A stretch of DNA of 64,000 bases. Source: an uncultured delta proteobacterium. GTDB lineage: Bacteria > Desulfobacterota > Syntrophorhabdia > Syntrophorhabdales > WCHB1-27. This document shows, one piece after another, positions 853 to 58,148 of this stretch. The stretch is from assembly GCA_963810935.1 (NCBI GenBank), contig CAWEPK010000012.1, forward strand, positions 224,001-288,000, read 5' to 3'. Below the pieces are notes generated by a model, which saw nothing but the letters and a program-made list of their open reading frames with translations, made no database searches and was not told where the DNA came from. Position numbers and translations under genes: made by a program. Positions within the stretch are counted from its first letter, which is position 1. Every line of letters starts with the position of its first letter.

Positions 853-1062
853 GGCAAATACGATCGGTATATGGTGTCATGACGGCGGGGCAGAAGAATG
901 TGGCGGTGTGAACTTTTGGCCCGGTTAGAGCGACGAAAGAGAAAGGAGTAGCAGGACGTGGCGCCCGCAGTCAAGATAGAAGTGAAGGCAACAGATAACG
1001 TGACTCGCCCACTGCGATAAGGTAAGATAACATGAAGGAGTAGACACTGAGGGAGGGTAAAA

Positions 1063-3235
1063 ATGAAAAAGCTAAAGATAGATATAGAAAATTGTTACGG
1101 GATCAAGAAACTCAAGGCCAACCTGGATTTTGATAAAAAGAAAGCTAATGCTATTTACGCCCCAAATGGGGCAATGAAGACCTCCCTTGCCCAGACTTTT
1201 AAGGATATACAGATGGGGGTACCCTCGAAGGATCGGATATTCATAAATCGCGTGCCCAAAAGGAATATTACGGACGAAACCGGCCTTGATTTGGCTACGG
1301 AGAATGTCTTGGTTATATGGCCTTACCAAGATCGTGATGATATTCAGCAAACGGAAAAGACCGCAACTCTACTCGTGAATGCTCAACTTCGTCAGGAATA
1401 CACGAACCTCCACAAAGATATCGAAAAATCCAAAGAAACGTTCCTCAAGACCATGAAGAAGCAGTCGGGGTCAAAGAAGGACTTAGAAAATGAGATCATT
1501 CTCGCGTTTACGGCAGACGACCTCCGTACTGCACTTAATCGCGTACGGTATGAAATGGCGGAATTGAATGATGCTCCATTTGCTGAGATTAAATATGACA
1601 TCGTTTTTGACGATAAGAGTGTTAGAGGTTCTTGGCACGGGGGACGTTAAAACAGCCATCGAAGCGTATATAAAGAATACAACGAATTGCTGGCCAATTC
1701 GACATACTTCAAGAAAGGCGTATTTAACTATTATAACGCTCAGGCCATCGCTAGGGAATCTAGCTGACAACGGTTTTTTCACCGCCAAGCACTCGGTAAA
1801 CTTGAATGCAGACATGGAGAAGATAGAGATCAAGAGCCGAAAGCAGCTTGAAGAGATAATACAAAAGGAAAAAGACGGCATAACAAACGATCAAGAACTC
1901 CGAAGGAAATTCGACGACATTGAAAGTCTCATTCATGCAACCAAACAGCTTCGGGGATTTGAGGATTACCTGGGCGATCATCAGGACATTCTCGCAGAGT
2001 TGGCGGATGTCGATAGATTCAGGCAGAGGATTTGGAAGTCTTATTTTAAGGCACACTACGATCTTTACAATGACTTGGTTGAAAAGTATCAAAAGGCTGA
2101 GAAAAGAGAAGCTGAGATCGTCAACGAAGCTAAAAAAGAACGTACGCAATGGGAGGATGTTATTGATATCTTTAACAGCCGCTTTCTTGTCCCTTTTAGG
2201 TTAGAAGTGAAGAACAGAACGTCCGTAATGCTAGGTTTTGAGAAGATACCAACCTTGACGTTCACTTTCGTTGAAGGAGCAGAACAGGCACCTATGGAAC
2301 GTGAATCGTTATTGGCGGCTCTAAGCACAGGGGAGCAAAGGGCGTTCTATTTACTGAATATCATTTTTGAAGTGGAAGCTCGAAAGAAGTTACAGCAGGA
2401 TACGGTATTGATTATTGATGACATAGCCGATTCGTTTGATTACAAGAACAAGTATGCCATTATTCAATATTTGAAAGATATTTCCGAGGAACAATACTTT
2501 CACGAAATCATTTTGACGCATAATTTTGATTTTTTTCGCACGGTGAATAGCAGGTTCGTTGATTATCCGCATTCTTTTATGGCCGTAAAAAACAAAGATG
2601 GCGTTTCATTAGAACTGGCGACGGGCGTACATAAGCCTTTTTCTAAGGACTGGAGGCTGTGTTTCTTCGACGATCCGAAGAAGAAAATTGCCTCAATTCC
2701 TTTTGTCCGAAACTTGATTGAATATACAAAAGGTGAGGGCGCCCCTGAGTTTGTTAAACTCACCTCTTTGTTACACTGGAAGAAAGACTCTAAGAATATC
2801 ACCATACAGGAATTAGATGACATGTTTGCCGGGCTATGTTGTATGGCCCTTCCAGCGCAACATGATGGCAACGGTATAGTAGTTGATCTAATCGAGACTG
2901 AAGCTAAGAAATGCCTTACGGCCGACGAAGGCATCAATTTGGAAAACAAGATTGTCCTGTCAATCGCTATACGGATAGCAGCCGAGAAATTTATGGTGGA
3001 CAAGATCAAGGATCCTAAGTTTGTTGACAGTATAAAATCGAATCAGACAACCGATTTATTGGCGAAATTCAAGCAACTGTTCCCGAAAGATACGGTTACT
3101 ATCAAGGCACTTGATCTGGTGGCGCTTATGACACCAGAAAACATACACCTGAATTCATTCATGTATGAGCCAATCTTAGATATGTCCGATGAACACTTGA
3201 GGAAGCTGTATAAAGATGTTTTAGCCTTAAAATGA
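1063..3235 (+). CDS. ABC/Rad50-like (AAA_13-type) ATPase with coiled coil and helical C-terminal domain, putative defence protein; frameshifts at about 1620-1750
   Basis: Variant Walker A YAPNGAMKTS, signature LSTGEQR, Walker B IIDD, D-loop SFD, H-loop THN; RBS GGAGGG; AT-richer than flanks; ORFs 1063-1650 and 1568-3235 join through an alternative frame (EYNELLANSTYFKKGVFNYYNA). Confidence 0.75.
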
Positions 3236-3307: not shown

Positions 3308-3431
3308 GGCCTGAGTTATTTTTGATGGAATTCGCGTTGCTTTTCGAAGGCGCGCGGTAGAGTGTACGGTTCGCTACGTGAGCACGCCGCGCACTATAAA
3401 ACGACGCGAAGGCCGCCGAAAGAGCCAGGCC
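3308..3431. repeat. Dispersed palindromic repeat family B, copy 1
   Basis: GGCCTG...CAGGCC ends; strongly similar to 54387-54507; core GTAC-loop-TACGTGAG. Confidence 0.85.
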
Positions 3432-3433
3432 CC

Positions 3434-3898
3434 TTATAACAACCCTGCCAGCTCTTCCACGAAACTCAACTGCCCCGGCTGTATCTTTTCTCTGGCTGCA
3501 TCAAGGGAGAACCACCCTGCCCTGTCCACTTCCGGAAACTCCCTCTCCATGCCTGAGCGCGGGGGCCACTCCATTATGAACGTGCTGCTTGTCAGCCGTT
3601 CCGGGTCGAAATCACCTTCGAACGCCCATGCGTAGACGGTCTTTCTGCTCTTGAGCACGACAGACCGCAGGGGCCGGTATTCCCCCGGCTTCGCCGCCGG
3701 CCGCATCCCCGTCTCCTCCTCGAACTCGCGCATCGCCGCGGCAAGCGTCTCTTCCCCTTCCTCGATCTCGCCCTTGGGGATCGACCACGCCCCCCTGTCC
3801 TTCGCTGCCCAGAAAGGGCCGCCGGGGTGGATGAGTAGCACCTGCGGGCCTTCCGGCCGCAGCCTGTACATCAATAAGCCCGCGCTTCGCTTCGGCAT
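3434..3898 (-). CDS. NUDIX hydrolase
   Basis: Nudix box GEIEEGEETLAAAMREFEEETG; HPGGPFW motif. Confidence 0.9.
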   Translation of the reverse strand: MPKRSAGLLMYRLRPEGPQVLLIHPGGPFWAAKDRGAWSIPKGEIEEGEETLAAAMREFEEETGMRPAAKPGEYRPLRSVVLKSRKTVYAWAFEGDFDPERLTSSTFIMEWPPRSGMEREFPEVDRAGWFSLDAAREKIQPGQLSFVEELAGLL

Positions 3899-29630: not shown

Positions 29631-29685
29631 CACTAAATGTACATCACGTGTTGCATATCTGTAATGAAAGTGTATAATAAATGCA

Positions 29686-29830
29686 ATGCGATTCGAGTGG
29701 GATAACCGAACAAGTTCGGTTAATGCAGAAAAGCATATATACCGTTCGCCGTGAGAGAATAAGACTGATATCCGTCAGGCGAGCAAGACGCAAGGAGGTA
29801 AAGCTATATGAAAAAGAAACAACCGGCTAA
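29686..29830 (+). pseudogene. brnT: BrnT toxin with internal deletion
   Basis: MRFEWD...NAEKH jumps out of frame to YTVR.ERIRLISVRRARRKEVKLYE; promoter TTGCAT-16-TATAAT at 29651-29678. Confidence 0.8.
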
Positions 29831-30062
29831 GACGGCTGCTGAATTTGACAGGCGCTTCGACGAAGGCGAAGACATTCACGATATAGCCGATCTATCAAAG
29901 GCCAAAATAACGTATCCCGGCAAAAAAGTCCGTATTACCCTCGACGTCCCGCAAGTCCTTGTTAATGAGATCGACAACCTACGCCAACGAATAGGAGTGG
30001 ACCGGGGCGCCCTTATCAAAGTCTGGCTTCATGAAAGAGTCGAGCAGGAGAAAGGACGGTAA
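29808..30062 (+). CDS. brnA: BrnA/CopG-type antitoxin
   Basis: AEFDRRFDEGEDI; RHH C-terminus RITLDVP...ALIKVWLHER. Confidence 0.85.
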   Translation: MKKKQPAKTAAEFDRRFDEGEDIHDIADLSKAKITYPGKKVRITLDVPQVLVNEIDNLRQRIGVDRGALIKVWLHERVEQEKGR

Positions 30063-38527: not shown

Positions 38528-38654
38528 TTGCGCGCCTGGCGGCCTTTCCCTCCGGCCGCCCCACCCTCCCTCGCTCGCTTCATCCGGTCTCCCCGCCCGT
38601 CACCCATTTTGCCGTTGACATAGACCGCCCGCGCCGTGTTATCATATGGCATAC

Positions 38655-38800
38655 TGGTACTCAGGGCGGGGTGGAAGTCCCCACCGGCGGTATCCCGGTT
38701 TTGAGCCGGGGAGCCCGCGAGCGCCCCTTCTTCCAGGAAGGGGGTCAGCAGACCTGGTGAAAAGCCAGGGCCGACGGTTACAGTCCGGACGGAAGAGCAT
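38655..38800 (+). promoter_or_regulatory. FMN riboswitch (RFN element)
   Basis: CAGGGCGGGGTGGAAGTCCCCACCGGCGGT...AGCCCGCGAGC...CCGACGGTTACAGTCCGGACGGAAGA upstream of ribB. Confidence 0.95.
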
Positions 38801-38911
38801 CGGGCGAATATCTGCAACACCCGCAAGCGGGCCTGTCGCCCGCGCGGACCTCGTGCCTTTTCTTCCCATATCCCTCTGAACCGGCAAAATTCAGCGTTGA
38901 GGAGGAACACC

Positions 38912-41228: not shown

Positions 41229-43312
41229 TGCACTTCACGTACCCAACATTTTATAGACGAACCCAAGGGAGGGGTGTAGAATGAAATGCACTGTAAATAG
41301 TAACAGTTTAAGGGAGGATATGATTATGACTGAGGATTCTCGATATCTCCTCAAGACCCTTCTTGACCAGACTAGAGTAGCCAATTACCCCTCTCTGGCA
41401 CCAGATAAATATTTTGAGATATTTAGTGCTCATCAAGCCTTAAAGGCTAGGCACTTTAACCCTGACCCAACGGAGATCGAATCAGGAATCGTAGGTGGTG
41501 ATGGTGATGGGGGCGTGGACGGCTTTTATTTGTTTGTTAACAAGAAATTTATTCGTGAGGACACCGATCCAGCTATCTTTAAAGATCAACAGATCAACAT
41601 TGAAGTAGTGATTGTGCAAGGAAAGAATAAGGCATCATTTGAAGAGTCGGTCCCTATGAAATTGAGCGATTTTATAGAGCACTGTCTCCGCCTAAGCGCC
41701 GATATCACATCATCTCAATTGTATAGTGATAGTCTTCTGACTCTTGTTAAGAAATTTCACGCGATTTACAAACCAGCTATATCGTTCCGTCCGGCTCTGA
41801 GTATTAATTTTTTCCACGTGACTTTAGGAGAACAAATTGACGATAAGGTAAAAGCTCGCGCCGAGTTATTGGAACAAAAAACTAAAGAGTCCTTTCCCAC
41901 TTCCGACTGTCACTATAATTTTATCGGCGGGAGAGCTTTGATTGATCTGTACTACCAACAGCCCGAGAGTACGTTATTGCTACCTATCCGGAAGTACTTT
42001 GATTATCAATCTTTCGGTAAAACCGCTTTTGTCTGTGTCGTTTCACTCCCAGATTATTATGACTTCATCAGGGATGGTCTTTCTCTGCGAGAATACATGT
42101 TTGAGGCTAATGTTCGAGACCACGCGCCAGATGCGACAGTAAATAAAGCTATTCATACTACGCTTGCTGTGCCTGACAATGATGACTTCTGGTGGCTAAA
42201 CAACGGCATTACTATTCTTGCATCTGACGTTTCTTATACCGGCAACGCGCTCAGGCTTACCGACCCTCAAATTGTCAACGGATTGCAAACCTCACACGAA
42301 GTATTCAACCATTTTGCGGAAGCAGTTTTGTTTAGGCCCCAGGATAATCGTTCCGTGATGGTGAAAGTAATCAGGAACATTGACGCAGATACATCGGATC
42401 GAATTATAAGAGCGACGAATAGCCAGACAAAAATAGAGTCTATTAATCTTCACGCCTCGGAACAGATTCACAGGGACATTGAAACGGCCCTGAAGAACGT
42501 TGATTTATTCTATGACAGAAGGAAGAATTTCTATCTGAACAAGGGCGCGTCCGCCTCGAAGATCATCACAATCGGATACATGGCCCAAGCTATAACGGCT
42601 ATTGTGTTGCAGCAACCGAACGACGCGAGAGCGCGACCAACGACTGTAGCTGATAAGAACTATAAGAAATTATTCTCGGATATATACCCGATTCAGCTAT
42701 ACCCGAAGTGTGCTCAAATTATGAAGCGGGTTGATTTGTATCTGGATGAAAAAGGCCTTACCCAAGGGACAAAGCTAAATCTCGTATTCTATCTTGGCAT
42801 GTATGCCACTTCTGCCGCATTCAAGATAGTTAAGCCAAATACGGCTAAAATAGCGTCTTGCGACATGTCTTTGTTGGCGGAATCTCTTTTGGATGGGTGT
42901 TATGCTTGGCTTTTGGAGACATTTGCGAAACTTGGCGGTAGTGACACAACCGCGAAAGGTCCGACCTTAGTGGCGGCTTTGAAAGAGCACATTAACGGGG
43001 AATATGGACGCCGCCCTGCTTTTTAAGATAACGAATAGGTAACAGGGCTGAGATGTGCGCCGTTTCTTCAGAATCTTCCCGCTTGCCTTCTCAACCCTTT
43101 CCCCTGCATCCTCGGCTTGGACAGCTTTTGCAGTCTCTAAAAAGCGACAGACTGCTTCTTGTCGTCTGGCTCGGGGTTCTTTTTCCTTGGCATTTTGTCT
43201 CTCCCTTTTCTCTTTAATTGGTCGTTTGATAGGTCAGACGCTTGCCAACGATACCACGCAGGAGCGCGCCTACACGAGCCACATCGGTATATCGTCTGCC
43301 CACTCTCTTGTT
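41229..43312 (-). mobile_element. Decayed IS1595-like element carrying AIPR
   Basis: Transposase C-terminal stub ...DVARVGALLRGIVGKRLTYQTTN* (43214-43312); small downstream ORF from 43193; candidate end GGGTACGTGAAGTGCA near 41229-41244. Confidence 0.6.
41326..43026 (+). CDS. AIPR family protein
   Basis: GDGGVDG, FEANVRD, FWWLNNGIT, QIVNGLQTS, ATNSQT, YDRRKN; AT-rich. Confidence 0.93.
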   Translation: MTEDSRYLLKTLLDQTRVANYPSLAPDKYFEIFSAHQALKARHFNPDPTEIESGIVGGDGDGGVDGFYLFVNKKFIREDTDPAIFKDQQINIEVVIVQGKNKASFEESVPMKLSDFIEHCLRLSADITSSQLYSDSLLTLVKKFHAIYKPAISFRPALSINFFHVTLGEQIDDKVKARAELLEQKTKESFPTSDCHYNFIGGRALIDLYYQQPESTLLLPIRKYFDYQSFGKTAFVCVVSLPDYYDFIRDGLSLREYMFEANVRDHAPDATVNKAIHTTLAVPDNDDFWWLNNGITILASDVSYTGNALRLTDPQIVNGLQTSHEVFNHFAEAVLFRPQDNRSVMVKVIRNIDADTSDRIIRATNSQTKIESINLHASEQIHRDIETALKNVDLFYDRRKNFYLNKGASASKIITIGYMAQAITAIVLQQPNDARARPTTVADKNYKKLFSDIYPIQLYPKCAQIMKRVDLYLDEKGLTQGTKLNLVFYLGMYATSAAFKIVKPNTAKIASCDMSLLAESLLDGCYAWLLETFAKLGGSDTTAKGPTLVAALKEHINGEYGRRPAF

Positions 43313-43361
43313 ACGCAGTGAGATTCTTTAGCTGTGCCCAGACTTGAGCCGAGTAAGCCAT
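43311..43361 (-). pseudogene. Stub of a probable HicA-type toxin
   Basis: MAYSAQVWAQLKNLTA* with RBS GGAG directly after hicB; ends where the transposase stub begins. Confidence 0.5.
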
Positions 43362-43368
43362 TCTCCAC

Positions 43369-43764
43369 TCAAATGGCTACGCGGATGTCTTCTGTGTGCC
43401 TTTGCCGGGAGGAACATGCGGTGCATGATGGTTGATAAGCGGGGCCTTCCACGATCCTTAAGGGGATAGCATCACCATGCTTTAAGAGAGATTCAATATA
43501 GAGCTTAATGGCGACTTTTGTATTTTTAAGGGCCTTTTTTTCGGTGCTGCCGTCTATGTGGATACCCTTTAAGGCCGGGCAATAGGCATAAAAGGAATCT
43601 CCATCCTCTTCAATGCATATATCGACGCTAAACGTGATGGAGTTGCCTTTAGTTAAGCCGGTCACCTGTTTGTCTCCTCCTTCGTGCCTCTTGGGCCTAT
43701 ACGGCGCCTGCATATAGTAACAATAATTGAGAGATTGTCTTCCGACCACCGATCTTCGCCGCAA
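43369..43764 (-). CDS. hicB: HicB family antitoxin (start uncertain)
   Basis: IEEDGDSFYAYCPALKGIHIDGSTEKKAL...YIESLLKHGDAIP. Confidence 0.8.
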   Translation of the reverse strand: MRRRSVVGRQSLNYCYYMQAPYRPKRHEGGDKQVTGLTKGNSITFSVDICIEEDGDSFYAYCPALKGIHIDGSTEKKALKNTKVAIKLYIESLLKHGDAIPLRIVEGPAYQPSCTACSSRQRHTEDIRVAI

Positions 43765-48295: not shown

Positions 48296-48414
48296 GGCGC
48301 TCCGTGTCTGTGAAGTTTTCGTAGTCTACTACAGTGTGTGGGTGAAGTTAAAGGGTCAGTGGGTAGGCCGGGGAGGATTGGTAGTGGGTCAGTTTGAAAG
48401 AGGAATTATTAGAT

Positions 48415-48593
48415 AAGCAAAGAGGAGTCTTGTAGTTAGTACAAAGCTCCTCTTCTGACTACACATTGATTAACATCCCGGGAGGATTCGTAATTCACAC
48501 GAACCCCCCCGCTTCACCATACGGGATTGCAATCTCCACTATATGGCGGCCTCCGAGGAGGACTTAAGCCCGATGCCGAAGCAGAGCGGGTAC
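48415..48593 (-). ncRNA. Candidate structured ncRNA downstream of pemK (putative RNA antitoxin)
   Basis: Own promoter; consecutive stems (UUCG-capped, CUCG-capped, long CGGGGGGGUUCGU/ACGAAUCCUCCCG); terminator hairpin AGAGGAG..CUCCUCU followed by UUUGCUU. Confidence 0.6.
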
Positions 48594-48599
48594 TTAACT

Positions 48600-48628
48600 A
48601 GAGTACTACGTCAAAGGTAACATGTCAA
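48600..48628 (-). promoter_or_regulatory. Sigma70 promoter embedded in the pemK 3' end
   Basis: TTGACA (48628-48623) -17- TACTCT (48605-48600). Confidence 0.7.
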
Positions 48629-49030
48629 GTGCGAAAGCGCAAGGGTGTTTAACACGCACTTTCTTATGTCCTTTAGTTGTGTTTCGGTAATGATTTTCTC
48701 AACATACTCACGTCTTCCAGCACGATCTTTGCCGATATAGGGCAAAGAAAGCCTACTCAGCGACACGGTAGCCAACATATCCCCCTTTACCCAGTGAAAA
48801 CGAGAATCGAAGGGCGGGGGTAACGGGTCATCAAGAAGTAATTTACAATGATATGGCATAACAGGGACGGGCGTCGTAGTGCTCAACGGTAATACCGTAC
48901 ATAGACCACCTCTCCCTCTGAATCTGGGAGAGATAACAACTGCAGGCCGCTTTTTTACCATTTCTGGCGGAATTCCATCAAAATTACAAATGACAATGGT
49001 TCCTACTTGGGGATGATAAGGAAGAGGCAT
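48611..49030 (-). CDS. PemK/MazF family endoribonuclease toxin with no protein antitoxin
   Basis: GTIVICNF, PEMVKKRPAVVIS, TVLPLSTT, WVKGDMLATVS..RL; RBS GGAG; promoter TTGTTA-17-TATAAT at 49076-49048. Confidence 0.88.
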   Translation of the reverse strand: MPLPYHPQVGTIVICNFDGIPPEMVKKRPAVVISPRFRGRGGLCTVLPLSTTTPVPVMPYHCKLLLDDPLPPPFDSRFHWVKGDMLATVSLSRLSLPYIGKDRAGRREYVEKIITETQLKDIRKCVLNTLALSHLTCYL

Positions 49031-49294
49031 CGTATTCTCCAAGGCTTATTATACGGTATGGCCGTTATTATAACAAGGGAATGATATCCTTCATCACTGA
49101 TCGGGCGCGTAGGTTCATGTCGTTCGGTCGCTTCTTCTTTGCCATGCTAAATGTAGCACGAGCGGTTAAACATGGTAAGCATCAGGATAAGAAAAGAAGA
49201 CCAAACTGACCCACTACCGGGGGGACTATGTACCTTGTGTGGGTGCATATAGTATGTTAGACTAACTCACCTACTCGTTTCAGGGGAGATCAAG

Positions 49295-50236
49295 ATGAAA
49301 AACAATTGCTTTAAGATAGGCCTTATACTGGCCGCCTTCGTGGTCTTGTTCGCCTTCGTCCTCCAGATTGACTCTTACGCTCGGATCGGCGGCGGCGGCT
49401 CAATGGGATCGCGCGGCTCGCGCAGCTTCAGCCCTCCGGGCGGGTCTTCGCCTTACAGACCGGTTACGCCGTCGCAGTCCTACGCACCCAGCCCGTATCA
49501 ATCGGGAGGCGGCAGCTTTTTCAGGAGCATGATGGGCGGCATGGCGGGCGGCTTCCTGGGCGGCATGCTCTTTCGCAGCCTCGGCTTCGGGGGCGGATGG
49601 GGCATGGGCGGCGGCGGGGGCGGCATCGGCCTCTTCGAGATTATCCTCGTCGTCGTCATACTTTACGGCCTCTACCGCTTCATGAAGAAGCGGAGGGCGG
49701 CGAGCGAGACGTATTACGAGTCCAACACATATGCGCCACCCGTCTACGAGCAGCAGCCGGCATACGGCGCGCCGGACCAGCAGTCGGACGTGGAGATGGG
49801 GCTTCGCTACATAAGGCAGATGGACGCATACTTCCAGGAAGGCGCCTTCCGCGACATGTGCCTGGATACGTTCTTCAAGATCCAGGGCGCCTGGGGCATG
49901 CGCGATATGGCGCCCGTCAGGGGCCTCCTTACGGATGAGATGTACAGCGCCATAGAGAGCGACGCAGCGAAGCTCCGGGCGGACCACAGGGTCAATAAGC
50001 TCGACAACATCGCCGTGCGGTCCACGGACATCGTCGAGGCGTGGCAGGAATCGGGCAGGGACTATATCACGGTGCGCTTCTACGCCAATCTGGTCGACTA
50101 TACGGTAGACGATAAGACGGGCGACGTAGTGTCGGGCAGCAAGACGGACCCGGTCAAGTTTGAGGAATACTGGACGTACACGCGGCAGGTCGGCAGCAAC
50201 CCGTGGCAGTTGTCGGCCATAACGCAGCCGCAATAA
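49295..50236 (+). CDS. Tim44 domain protein
   Basis: [16 protein letters not shown], Gly-rich TM region, FEEYWTY...WQLSAI. Confidence 0.92.
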
Positions 50237-55584: not shown

Positions 55585-56480
55585 AGACACAGGTATTACT
55601 AGTCAATTTCGGAGCGCCGGGGACCGCCGCCGAGGTGGCGCCTTTTTTAAGGGGGCTTACGGGCCGCGACGCCCCGCCCGAGGCAATCGAAGCCTTGCAG
55701 GAGAGGTACCGGGCCATCGGCGGCTCACCCCTCACCACTATCACGCAGGAGCAGGCCGCGGCCCTCGCTGCGGATACGGGCCTTCCAGTCTCTTGCGCCT
55801 TCAGGTACACCTCGCCTACCCTCGAAGAGGCGATCAACGGCTGCTACATGTCGGGCATGGAGCGCATCGTTTTTTTCGTCATGTCCCCTTTTTACAACTC
55901 CCGGACCGTCGGCGCATACGTGAGGACGGCCGGGACGTATATCCCGCTTTTGCCTTTTAACCCGGACGTCGTCTTCGTCCATAGCTGGTACGCGTCCGAC
56001 GCGTTCAGGCAGGCATGGGCGCAAAGGATCCGCGAGCACGCAGCCGCAGGCCAGGCGGAGGCAGGCAGCGCCTTTTACCTGTTTTCCGCGCACAGCCTGC
56101 CCCTCTCATGCAAAGGCGAGCCTTACTTCGCCCAGGTGGAGGAGACGGCTTCCGACATCGCGTCGCGCCTCGGCCTTCCCGCCTCCCGCTGGGGCCTCGC
56201 GTGGCAGAGCGCGCCCGCGTCGCCCGAAGAGCCGTGGATGGGGCCGTACGTTGAAGAGACGATGGACGGAGCAGCCAAAAATGCGTCGGCCGTGATCGAG
56301 GCGCCGGTGGGCTTCGTCAGCGACCACCTGGAGACGCTCTACGATATCGATATCGTCCACGCGCGCTATGCGGCATCGCTGGGGCTCGCATTTTCGCGCG
56401 TGCCATCCCTTAACACGTACCCGCCTTTCATGGCAGCCTGCAAAGCCGTCCTCCTGGAGCGGCTCGCACAGGGGCAATAA
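55581..56480 (+). CDS. hemH: Ferrochelatase
   Basis: LLVNFGAP, IGGSPL, FSAHSLP, GFVSDHLETLYDID. Confidence 0.95.
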   Translation: MKTQVLLVNFGAPGTAAEVAPFLRGLTGRDAPPEAIEALQERYRAIGGSPLTTITQEQAAALAADTGLPVSCAFRYTSPTLEEAINGCYMSGMERIVFFVMSPFYNSRTVGAYVRTAGTYIPLLPFNPDVVFVHSWYASDAFRQAWAQRIREHAAAGQAEAGSAFYLFSAHSLPLSCKGEPYFAQVEETASDIASRLGLPASRWGLAWQSAPASPEEPWMGPYVEETMDGAAKNASAVIEAPVGFVSDHLETLYDIDIVHARYAASLGLAFSRVPSLNTYPPFMAACKAVLLERLAQGQ

Positions 56481-57887
56481 TGCGGGTCGCAATCGTCGGC
56501 AGCGGAGTCTCCGCCCTCGCCTGCGCAGTAGCGCTCAAAGAGAAAGGCATAGAGTTCACCGTCTTTGAGAGCGCGCCCGTCCCCGGCGGCAAGCTCCGCA
56601 CGGAGGAGATAGACGGCTTCACCGTTGAGGCGGGGCCGGACAGCTTCCTCCCCGAAAAATACTGGACGGTCGATCTCATACGGCGCGTGGGCCTCGCGGC
56701 CGATCTTCTCCCTACGAACGACGAGCACAAGGGGACATATATCTATTCCGGCGGACGCCTCCACAGGCTGCCCGACGGCGTGATGCTTATGGTCCCGACG
56801 ATGATCATGCCCCTTGCCCGCTCGCGCCTCATATCCTGGCCGGGGAAGCTGCGCATGGGAATGGAGACCTTCGTCCCCGCCAAAAAAGACGGCTCCGACG
56901 AGAGCCTGGCGAGCTTCGTCACCAGAAGGCTCGGCAGGGAGTGCCTGGAGAAGATCGCGGAACCTCTCGTCGCGGGGATCCATACATCCGACCCTCAGGA
57001 CATGAGCGTGAATGCCGTCTTCCCCAGATTTACGGAGATGGAGCGGACGAAGGGAAGCCTCATCAGGGCGATGGCGGCAGCTTCAAAGAAAAGGCCGGGG
57101 CGGGGCGCGGGCAAGGCAGGCGGCGCAAGCGCTGCCCCCATGACATATTTCATGTCCCTTAAACACGGCATGGGGCAGTTAGGCGAGGCGTGCGTGGCTT
57201 TCGCCGGCAGCGGCGCTTTTCGCACTTCCTGCGAGGTCACCCGCATAACAAAGGCGGCGGCAGGGTTCAATATAGAGGCGGGGTGCGAAAAAGCAGCCTT
57301 CGACGCAGTCGTCATCTCTACCCCGTCTTACGTGACAAGCAGGATCGTAGCGGACATGGCCCCGGACCTGGCCCGCCTGCTCGACGCCATCCAGTGGTCT
57401 TCGACTGCGACCGTTTCGCTCGCCTTTAATGAAAAAGACGCGCCGCGACTGCCGGGCTTCGGCTTCATCGTGCCCAGGACGGAAAAAAGGCGGATCAACG
57501 CTGCGACGTGGAGACTCGGTAAAGTGGCGCTACAGGGCCCCCGCCGGGAGCCTCCTCGTGAGGGCGTTCGTGGGCGGCGCGGGGCGGGCGGACCTCGCTT
57601 CGGCGGGCGACGCAGAGATCGTGCGCATAGTCGCCGAAGAGCTGCGCGAGATCGCCGGTATCGGCGCAAACGCGCTTTTTGCACGCGTTTACCGCTGGCC
57701 CCGGTCGATGCCCCGCTACACGGTCGGCCACCTCGACCGCGTCGATGCCATCGACAGGTGCGCAGCCGCGTTCCCCGGACTGCATCTTATAGGAGCGTCG
57801 CTGCGCGGCATAGGCATAGGGGACTGCGTAAGGAGCGGGTTCAACGCTGCAGAAGGAATAGCCAAAGCTTTTTCTTCCTCTTTATGA
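56480..57887 (+). CDS. hemG: HemY/HemG (copro/protoporphyrinogen oxidase); frameshift near 57515
   Basis: GSGVSAL, EAGPDSF, GFGFIVP, then RWPRSMPRYTVGH, GIGIGDCV. Confidence 0.92.
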
Positions 57888-58049
57888 GGGGGTGGCTCCG
57901 CGAGCTTTGCTCGTGGAGGGGGCGACGATAGCCCCGATAATTGCCAGGTGCGCAGCCGCGTTCCCCGGACTGTATCTCATAGGAGCGTCGCTGCGCGGCA
58001 TAGGCATAGGGGACTGCGTAAGGAGCGGCTTCAACGCGGCAGAAGGAAT
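57755..58049 (+). repeat. 105-bp direct duplication of the hemG 3' end (57755-57859 and 57945-58049)
   Basis: Four mismatches between copies; a family A repeat lies between them. Confidence 0.95.
57885..57942 (-). repeat. Repeat family A, copy 6
   Basis: GGCTCCGCGAGCTTTGCTCGTGGAGGGGGCGACGATAGCCCCGATAATT, parallel to copy 3. Confidence 0.8.
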
Positions 58050-58148
58050 TACACAGTCTGCGATAGAGGGAATTTGACCCGGAAGCGCGGTTGGCGTACC
58101 GCGCCTTCGGGTCACTTGAGAATCGCGAATAGCAGGGAAAACAAGACG

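Follow-up and report, generated by a model that had tools for sequence, protein, structure and literature searches.

Many bacterial genes are annotated as PemK/MazF toxins although no MazE or PemI antitoxin lies beside them, and the question that such a locus raises is what, if anything, would keep the toxin in check. One case is found in the window, by which we mean the whole stretch of 64,000 nucleotides of DNA analysed here, where an orphan gene of this kind is followed by a region that the initial annotation had read as a structured RNA with a promoter of its own. We consider it probable that this region encodes an RNA antitoxin, present as a single copy downstream of the gene, which would bind and silence a type II-like MazF RNase of the YifN clade. 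In what follows we set out the comparative evidence for the gene, for the RNA and for their association, and then weigh the other readings that this evidence allows.

A YifN-type gene with a MazF fold

The open reading frame at 48611..49030 on the minus strand encodes 139 amino acids. It is intact, as had been claimed for it, and it matches Pfam PemK_toxin (PF02452) with an E-value of 2.8e-11 and 44 bits, against a cut-off of 23.1; this is the sole Pfam match of the protein. Several close homologues carry the JGI name 'YifN (PemK superfamily)', and the family as a whole comprises 727 clusters at 50% identity (E<=1e-10). PADLOC has no model that covers the family, and matched 0 of the 64 members submitted to it.

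The predicted structure is a MazF fold (pLDDT 93.5), which superimposes on MazF-mt1 with a Z-score of 14.2 and an rmsd of 2.2 over 111 aligned residues. Against this 14.2 for a type II MazF, the Z-score is 9.2 for CptN, 5.8 and 4.8 for ToxN and 5.5 for AbiQ. Because the fold is nearer to type II MazF than to CptN, ToxN or AbiQ, the model suggests an origin independent of the type III toxins. Residues R28 and S50 are invariant across the 64 sequences aligned, out of 121 at hand, and coincide in the alignment with R29 and T52 of E. coli MazF, which we take to have catalytic roles there; on these aligned active-site residues the 139-aa protein is predicted to be an endoribonuclease. Four basic residues, K26, K82, R93 and R107, are invariant as well. 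The protein has about 18 residues more than type II MazF/PemK, including a basic beta-hairpin at residues 98-109 (K101, R106, R107) that was added in the YifN-type clade.

The gene is preceded by a ribosome-binding site, GGAGA at 49040-49036 (minus strand), and by a sigma70-like promoter, TTGTTA-17-TATAAT, at 49048..49076 (minus strand). This promoter had also been pointed out in the initial annotation, and the promoter scan calls it with 10 of 12 matches. It is weakly common to the relatives, where a score of at least 9 is reached upstream of the gene in 17/132 cases compared with 3/132 at control positions. A 25-aa ORF at 49068..49145 (minus strand) ends on its -35 box.

A three-hairpin RNA accompanies the gene

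To follow the downstream region across the family we fetched 227 related loci; with the window included, the stop codon was in view in 227 of the 228. A DNA profile (HMM) for the RNA, seeded on 112 of the fetched loci, finds it downstream of the gene in 220/227. Six of the loci missed by the HMM were given to a covariance model, which recovered the RNA in all six with E-values from 1e-10 to 0.004, and the seventh miss, L109, has a downstream sequence identical to that of L108. Counting either method, the structured RNA is present at 226 of the 227 gene loci. It is there as a single copy downstream of the gene, in agreement with the non-repetitive RNA that had been proposed. The similarities of protein and RNA are correlated (Mantel r 0.68, 90 loci), which shows linkage only and not co-evolution by contact.

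After 13 loci had been dropped for length and the rest collapsed at 90% identity, 149 loci remained. From these, 141 RNA sequences entered a structure-blind MAFFT alignment; L007, L066, L110, L118, L126, L131, L133 and L142 were left out, being badly bounded or carrying insertions. RNAalifold and mutual information agree on three hairpins, P1, P2 and P3, in the 141 sequences. The 20 consensus pairs are formed in 92.2% of cells, compared with 75.6% after shuffling and at most 46% when the pairs are slid, and 18 of the 20 show compensatory double changes, with the caveat that the structure was derived from the same alignment and that relatives are not independent. The suggestion that the downstream structure would covary among PemK homologues was thereby borne out.

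In the window copy, all of it on the minus strand, the RNA probably starts at G48593, a position that follows from the promoter spacing and from analogy with a mapped E. coli RNA described below. Hairpin P1, which together with this 5' end occupies 48569..48593, consists of a CCCG/CGGG stem, a 3x1 internal loop, a UGC/GCA stem and a UUCG loop. It is followed by the single-stranded linker CUUAAGU (48562..48568), where A48564 is invariant and AAG nearly so, and which is a candidate for a toxin-binding or pseudo-substrate strand. Hairpin P2 (48550..48561), CCUC-CUCG-GAGG, has a variable loop and is supported by covariation: its pair 48559-48552 has changed on both sides in 87 of the 141 sequences. 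Covariation also supports hairpin P3 (48517..48546), in which an apical GGA/UCC stem presents the loop GAnnnCAA (48534-48527). The conserved unpaired parts are the P1 internal loop (C-n-C/U), the AAG linker and the P3 loop GAnnnCAA. What varies in the RNA is the length of loops and the paired stems, and there is no variable, guide-like segment.

The 187-nt downstream region has a minimum free energy fold with z -4.57, and 0 of 200 shuffles fold as well; the stems named in the initial annotation are all present in this fold. Taken by itself, the 82-nt core shows no unusual stability (z -1.3). As for size, the proposed RNA of about 175 nt holds up in its 5' 80 nt and in its terminator, which are conserved, but not in the remainder, which is not; the RNA measures about 110 nt in relatives and about 180 nt in the window copy.

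Part of the window copy is private to it. An insert at 48454..48512 (minus strand), which includes a long helix at 48511-48479, matches nothing in the other loci or in the rest of the genome, and P3 is separated from the tail by a spacer longer than 60 nt in only 4/130 loci. The insert lowers the predicted probability of P1, which has an ensemble value of 0.17-0.35 in this copy; because the insert competes with P1 in the model, the window copy may fold less cleanly than others. The tail UUUGCUU is kept. The long helix had been put forward as part of the RNA, together with a multibranch junction closed by CCCGCU and AGCGGG. This closure has a pair probability of at most 0.02, and the complement that it needs is present in 1/149 loci, namely the window itself. 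Both were rejected as conserved features, being copy-specific.

No known family accounts for the RNA. The search of Rfam that had been recommended, with pemK, abiF and ToxI in mind, gave no match at E<=10 across 48300-49300, and on 20 related loci a tRNA was all that reached the gathering score. The Rfam pemK model, RF02913, has no match at E<=1 in the window or in its genome, the one genome searched. Assignment to a known ribozyme, to the C4 motif or to the DUF3800 motif was dropped, since no Rfam model matched. By blastn the RNA has no match in annotated phages and matches three plasmids.

Promoter, terminator and a loop-tail match

The promoter of the RNA, TTGACA-17-TACTCT, lies at 48600..48628 on the minus strand, across the last codons and the stop of the gene: its -35 box (48628-48623) falls in Leu-Thr codons of pemK, and its -10 box is at 48605-48600. 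It escaped a consensus promoter scan, since its -10 box agrees at just three of six positions. The embedded promoter of the initial annotation is nevertheless both present and conserved, as a sigma70-like promoter scoring at least 9 of 12 occurs just before the RNA in 121/149 loci, compared with at most 8/149 at any of eight control offsets. The sequence TTGAC is found in 132/149 loci, of which 117 have it in coding sequence (115 in frame), seven across the stop codon and eight after the stop. Since it is retained where the stop precedes or overlaps it, TTGAC is conserved at the DNA level, also in loci whose protein stops sooner.

The RNA ends in a terminator-like hairpin with the tail UUUGCUU (48415..48453, minus strand). 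The terminator claimed at this place is found in the minimum free energy fold and is kept in relatives, but it is not called by a terminator scan and its tail is interrupted. Such a hairpin is present in 130/149 loci, typically 25 nt past P3, and the tail in relatives often reads UUUGC instead of plain U. The UUGC of the tail is complementary to the GCAA of the P3 loop. A loop-tail match of at least four pairs is seen in 80/130 loci, compared with 60.5+-3.0 after shuffling (maximum 71 in 2000), and one of at least five pairs in 14, compared with 7.6+-2.0 (maximum 14), in a shuffle test that is inflated by the relatedness of the loci. The base after the tail UUG is C in 72 of the 78 loci with a G in the loop, and U in 8 of the 12 with an A, while the tail lacks UUG in 35/130. 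In control terminators UUGC occurs in 2/36, and two loci obtained later, L338 and L387, also fit the loop-tail rule. A non-universal pseudoknot between P3 loop and tail is likely on this complementarity.

Orientation and mobility

The association of gene and RNA does not depend on their relative orientation. At L108 the RNA lies on the opposite strand (3430-3529) and converges on pemK; it has a promoter of its own, and the two share a terminator. At L401, a YifN-clade locus, the RNA is likewise inverted. Because the RNA is inverted in these two lineages, it appears to act in trans, as a separate molecule. An RNA hit is retained at every one of the 10 loci where a stop or frame change had been flagged; some of these flags are no more than early natural stops. 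Full RNAs are also found without the gene, at L289 (after a gene remnant), L229, L238, L263, L269 and L319. A second RNA copy is present in the same locus in three cases (L113:3-324, L055:895-987 and L117:2424-2510), one of them behind a second YifN-type gene and two without a gene.

The 126 neighbouring proteins identified at 43 loci include integrases, IS1 and IS1595 transposases, prophage repressors and unrelated housekeeping genes, and gene and RNA together occupy prophage and plasmid cargo positions. Among 60 relatives of the window genome, two have the RNA, one with the gene and the other as a phage-like copy without it. A second family has the RNA in 1/64 genomes, that one carrying the gene. 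Judged by this distribution, gene and RNA form a module that appears to be mobile and sporadic, inserting alone in unrelated contexts.

Some individual placements may be mentioned here. At L085:3001-3536 the module has inserted into a type II CRISPR locus, with cas9 on one side and cas1 on the other. Eleven Vibrio tailless phage records (L003, hits H10-H20) carry the gene at their end; in L003, the record that was fetched, it stands behind a repressor gene and has a divergent RNA copy. In L081, L083, L084, L190, L222 and L227 the gene-linked RNA copies run into tRNA-like halves, with no terminator.

The corresponding locus of E. coli

E. coli YifN is a distant homologue of the window protein (hhalign probability 99.1%, E 1.9e-18), and the K-12 gene is followed by the same succession of elements. 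Specifically, between yifN and ppiC there is a TTGACA across the stop codon, a 17-nt spacer, GATAAT, an RNA (L386:2403-2482), and a terminator whose tail is UUUUGC. All four plasmid-borne loci of the YifN clade that were fetched have the combination of promoter, RNA and terminator, and 3985/5426 complete genomes contain the E. coli yifN region. Unlike the window RNA, the E. coli RNA is short (79 nt) and lacks the GAnnnCAA hairpin, and the covariance model has no match to it; the two are linked by layout and by protein homology, not by RNA homology. A three-hairpin copy is found in a prophage of E. coli SE11, between Q and the holins.

An E. coli small RNA, ecr3777, has ends that coincide with the predicted start and tail of the yifN RNA, given what we take to be a +1977 offset between E. 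coli genome versions. The expression of this analogue is published: Romero et al. (2014; PMC4681348) saw ecr3777(d+), of 79 nt and located between ppiC and yifO, in RNA-seq data and on a northern blot, and Conway et al. detected it too. In the part of that paper covered here, it is given no function and is not tied to the YifN protein. By eye, the probe labelled ecr2775 matches the yifN RNA region, and in the same part of the paper the ecr2775 and ecr3777 probe labels look swapped, both RNAs being marked as detected.

The outcome of a published screen speaks against a role in defence. According to the sections of the DefensePredictor study covered (PMC13092281), a 450-nt PemK/MazF gene, WP_000996695.1, was non-defensive against 24 phages when cloned in MG1655. 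From its length and accession only, this gene is probably yifN, and the MG1655 host makes the cognate RNA from its own chromosome. Relatives of YifN were not found in viral contigs.

Copies of the RNA core in phages

Viral contigs were scanned starting from the RNA, with a pattern made of P1 and the linker. The 50 distinct phage matches have the gene upstream in 10 cases and lack it in 40, and for a second core pattern the gene is present in 3/12 matches and absent in 9/12. Patterns built on the P3 loop give a different picture: one of them has 61 matches in total, of which the 18 loci supported by the covariance model all have the gene upstream, the rest being chance, and another has the gene in 4/6. 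Because the gene is upstream in 18/18 and 4/6 of these loop-pattern matches, the GAnnnCAA loop appears to mark the gene-linked form, and the core, P1-linker-P2, to be more widely distributed.

In the phages, core-only copies sit after promoters, cro-like genes, NusG-like genes and tRNAs. At 4 of the 20 core-only phage loci scanned, an Rfam abiF motif that exceeds its gathering score comes immediately after the core; these four are in related viral contigs (L251:1493-1602, L258:1425-1537, L262 and L252) and are not independent. In L251, and likewise in L234, the core lies behind a gene that by eye resembles that for the ribonucleotide reductase small subunit. Searches for Abi_2 and YifN-type genes in 5 and 10 core-only phage contigs, those with the abiF motif among them, were negative, but the contigs are just 15-67% complete. 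Pseudo-ToxI is a phage mimic of an antitoxin, and by analogy with it the core-abiF phage transcript suggests a stack of antitoxin mimics. The joint transcript also lends indirect support to the core being an antitoxin. Alternatively, it is possible that the core has an independent function in phages.

Among the other core-only copies, L234 is similar to L251 and by eye has the same loop, but was not listed by the scan. The fragment of a large phage in L237 has two near-identical core copies 635 nt apart (1457-1536 and 2092-2171), both behind the same promoter-like sequence. In L233, L241 and L272 the core starts a few bases past a phage tRNA gene.

How the module might work, and what else it might be

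In our preferred reading, the module would be a mobile pair made up of a type II-like, YifN-clade MazF/PemK endoribonuclease and a small RNA made separately. The RNA would be transcribed from the promoter hidden in the last codons of the toxin gene and would fold into three hairpins, its 3' tail probably pairing with the P3 loop to form a pseudoknot. This RNA would then silence the RNase by binding it directly, in the manner of type III antitoxins. Were transcription to stop or the module to be lost, the RNA would decay and the RNase, once freed, would cut cellular RNA, leading to addiction and possibly to abortive infection. The pairing of an orphan PemK with a self-promoted structured RNA, as first proposed from this locus, has passed the comparative tests of linkage, covariation, promoter conservation and lack of a partner; the antitoxin step is what we infer from that pairing. 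An anti-phage role of the module is weakly supported, and we put it at somewhat under an even chance. It seems to us rather unlikely that the more far-reaching version of this idea is correct, according to which the YifN-clade MazF proteins form a large, independently evolved, RNA-neutralised anti-phage family that phages counter with decoy RNAs, gene-free copies of the antitoxin core behind phage promoters, which some phages join to an abiF motif and tRNA-like pieces in one transcript mimicking several antitoxins.

With a fold whose nearest match is type II MazF, one might expect an ordinary protein antitoxin, whether the 25-aa ORF, a downstream peptide or a distant MazE. However, 186 of the 191 protein clusters neighbouring the 149 loci are singletons and no neighbour of the MazE/PemI kind is conserved, so that the lack of such a partner, already remarked upon in the window, extends to the family. 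A Pfam search of the neighbours at 43 loci likewise shows no MazE/PemI, barring one opposite-strand HI1420-type gene. The 25-aa ORF was rejected as an antitoxin, since none of the other loci holds a homologue of it (best tblastn E 1.1). So was a peptide from the RNA region, for which there is no conserved reading frame: core lengths modulo 3 are distributed 55/48/45, without frame bias, and each frame is open in at most 70 of 148 loci. With a module that moreover inserts alone in unrelated contexts, a protein antitoxin is barely credible. The position of the RNA, usually on the same strand and directly 3' of the gene, where the pemK mRNA probably includes it, would also fit control in cis, in which the RNA either pairs with that mRNA in a type I-like manner or serves as its 3' UTR. 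Pairing finds no counterpart in the sequences, as the longest antisense match between RNA and mRNA does not exceed 12 nt, much as in the control, and the duplex of the RNA with its own start region (-36.0 kcal/mol) compares with -34.3 kcal/mol for the start regions of others and is the better one in 85/148 loci. Antisense control was rejected on these figures, and given also the inverted copies at L108 and L401, we regard either form of cis control as very improbable.

The linkage and covariation would be the same if the RNA bound the protein not as an inhibitor but as a cofactor, sensor, guide or dedicated substrate, with the protein alone being non-toxic. Such a role would agree with the cloning of the probable YifN orthologue in MG1655 and with the retention of the yifN region in most of the E. 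coli genomes counted above. However, the MG1655 chromosome supplies the cognate RNA and could rescue the clone in trans, the RNA has no segment that varies as a guide would, and broken genes retain the RNA while no intact gene is found without it, an asymmetry of the kind that addiction produces. We therefore think a cofactor role unlikely. Finally, the core-only phage copies, placed right after promoters, cro-like and NusG-like genes and tRNA genes, are what one would see if the core were a leader element of phage transcripts (a stabiliser, antiterminator or processing signal) on which pemK hitch-hikes. This does not sit well with the pemK loci, where the RNA stops at a terminator and is the leader of no gene, nor with the way in which the GAnnnCAA loop tracks the gene, nor with the family of 64 genomes in which the RNA occurs only in the gene-bearing one, and we give it a low probability.

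Relation to known systems

The antitoxin reading places the module closest to type III systems. In ToxIN, CptIN and TenpIN, the antitoxin RNA lies upstream of the toxin as tandem repeats; one promoter serves both, and a terminator separates them (PMC13682666, in the part covered). The window module is like these in having a MazF-fold toxin beside a non-coding RNA with no protein antitoxin, and possibly in the pseudoknot suggested by loop-tail complementarity in 80 of the 130 loci. It is unlike them in that its RNA is a single copy, downstream, with its own promoter, and the tandem upstream repeats under one promoter that characterise canonical type III systems are absent from it. The abiF ncRNA (RCd22) neutralises an RNase toxin by direct binding, in cis as well as in trans, as reported in the sections of PMC12373285 covered. 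The module can be likened to AbiF/Abi_2 and its ncRNA (Rfam RF03085) as a structured RNA with an RNase toxin, inhibition being only predicted here, but both the protein family (Abi_2/AbiD/F) and the RNA are different, and the window has no abiF motif. With type II MazEF/PemIK the module shares the MazF fold and the aligned active-site residues, but not the MazE/PemI partner, and its protein has the extra residues described above. The Rfam pemK motif RF02913, found in Bacillota upstream of pemK, is an RNA named after such genes, but it does not match here. The module is thus not type II, as there is no protein partner, not type I, as there is no antisense match, and neither of the Rfam motifs pemK and abiF; most likely the RNA works like those of type III systems, outside the canonical ones.

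The literature covered, mostly open-access papers, holds no description of the motif or of a pairing between YifN and an RNA. The motif is absent from the parts covered of PMC5737381, PMC2701414 and 10.64898/2026.09.22.753630, and catalogues of candidate RNAs, e.g., PMC8040213, may hold it unnamed.

If the antitoxin reading is true, the RNA would belong to a new family of RNA antitoxins with a new layout, within the type II MazF family, where it would replace the protein antitoxin on an ordinary MazF fold. It would account for thousands of genes described as type II PemK/MazF toxins that have no MazE, and it would provide a testable role for E. coli yifN and for its unexplained sRNA, a region present in about 4,000 complete genomes out of 5,426. 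The phage copies that lack the gene and lie beside abiF motifs would point to RNA decoys as a means of counter-defence, and phage arrays containing antitoxin motifs would be a route to further RNA antitoxins.

Other features of the window

The initial annotation also spoke of three decayed toxins in the window. Two are recognisable in the 57 selected frames that were searched with Pfam, and the third was not found among them: a BrnT toxin fragment with an RHH/CopG antitoxin-like ORF behind it (29681-30059, plus strand), and a HicB-like gene without HicA. The latter lies with a lone AIPR gene in a low-GC island (41281-43764) in which HicA was not detected. Also of low GC content is an AAA_13 ATPase gene, presumably RloC-like, which is apparently split over two overlapping frames (1051-3232, plus strand). 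An FMN riboswitch (Rfam RF00050, 103.9 bits) is located at 38653-38804 on the plus strand, and a gene that by eye resembles protoporphyrinogen oxidase, at 56480-58077 on the plus strand, appears to be frameshifted near 57430 and has its 3' end duplicated.
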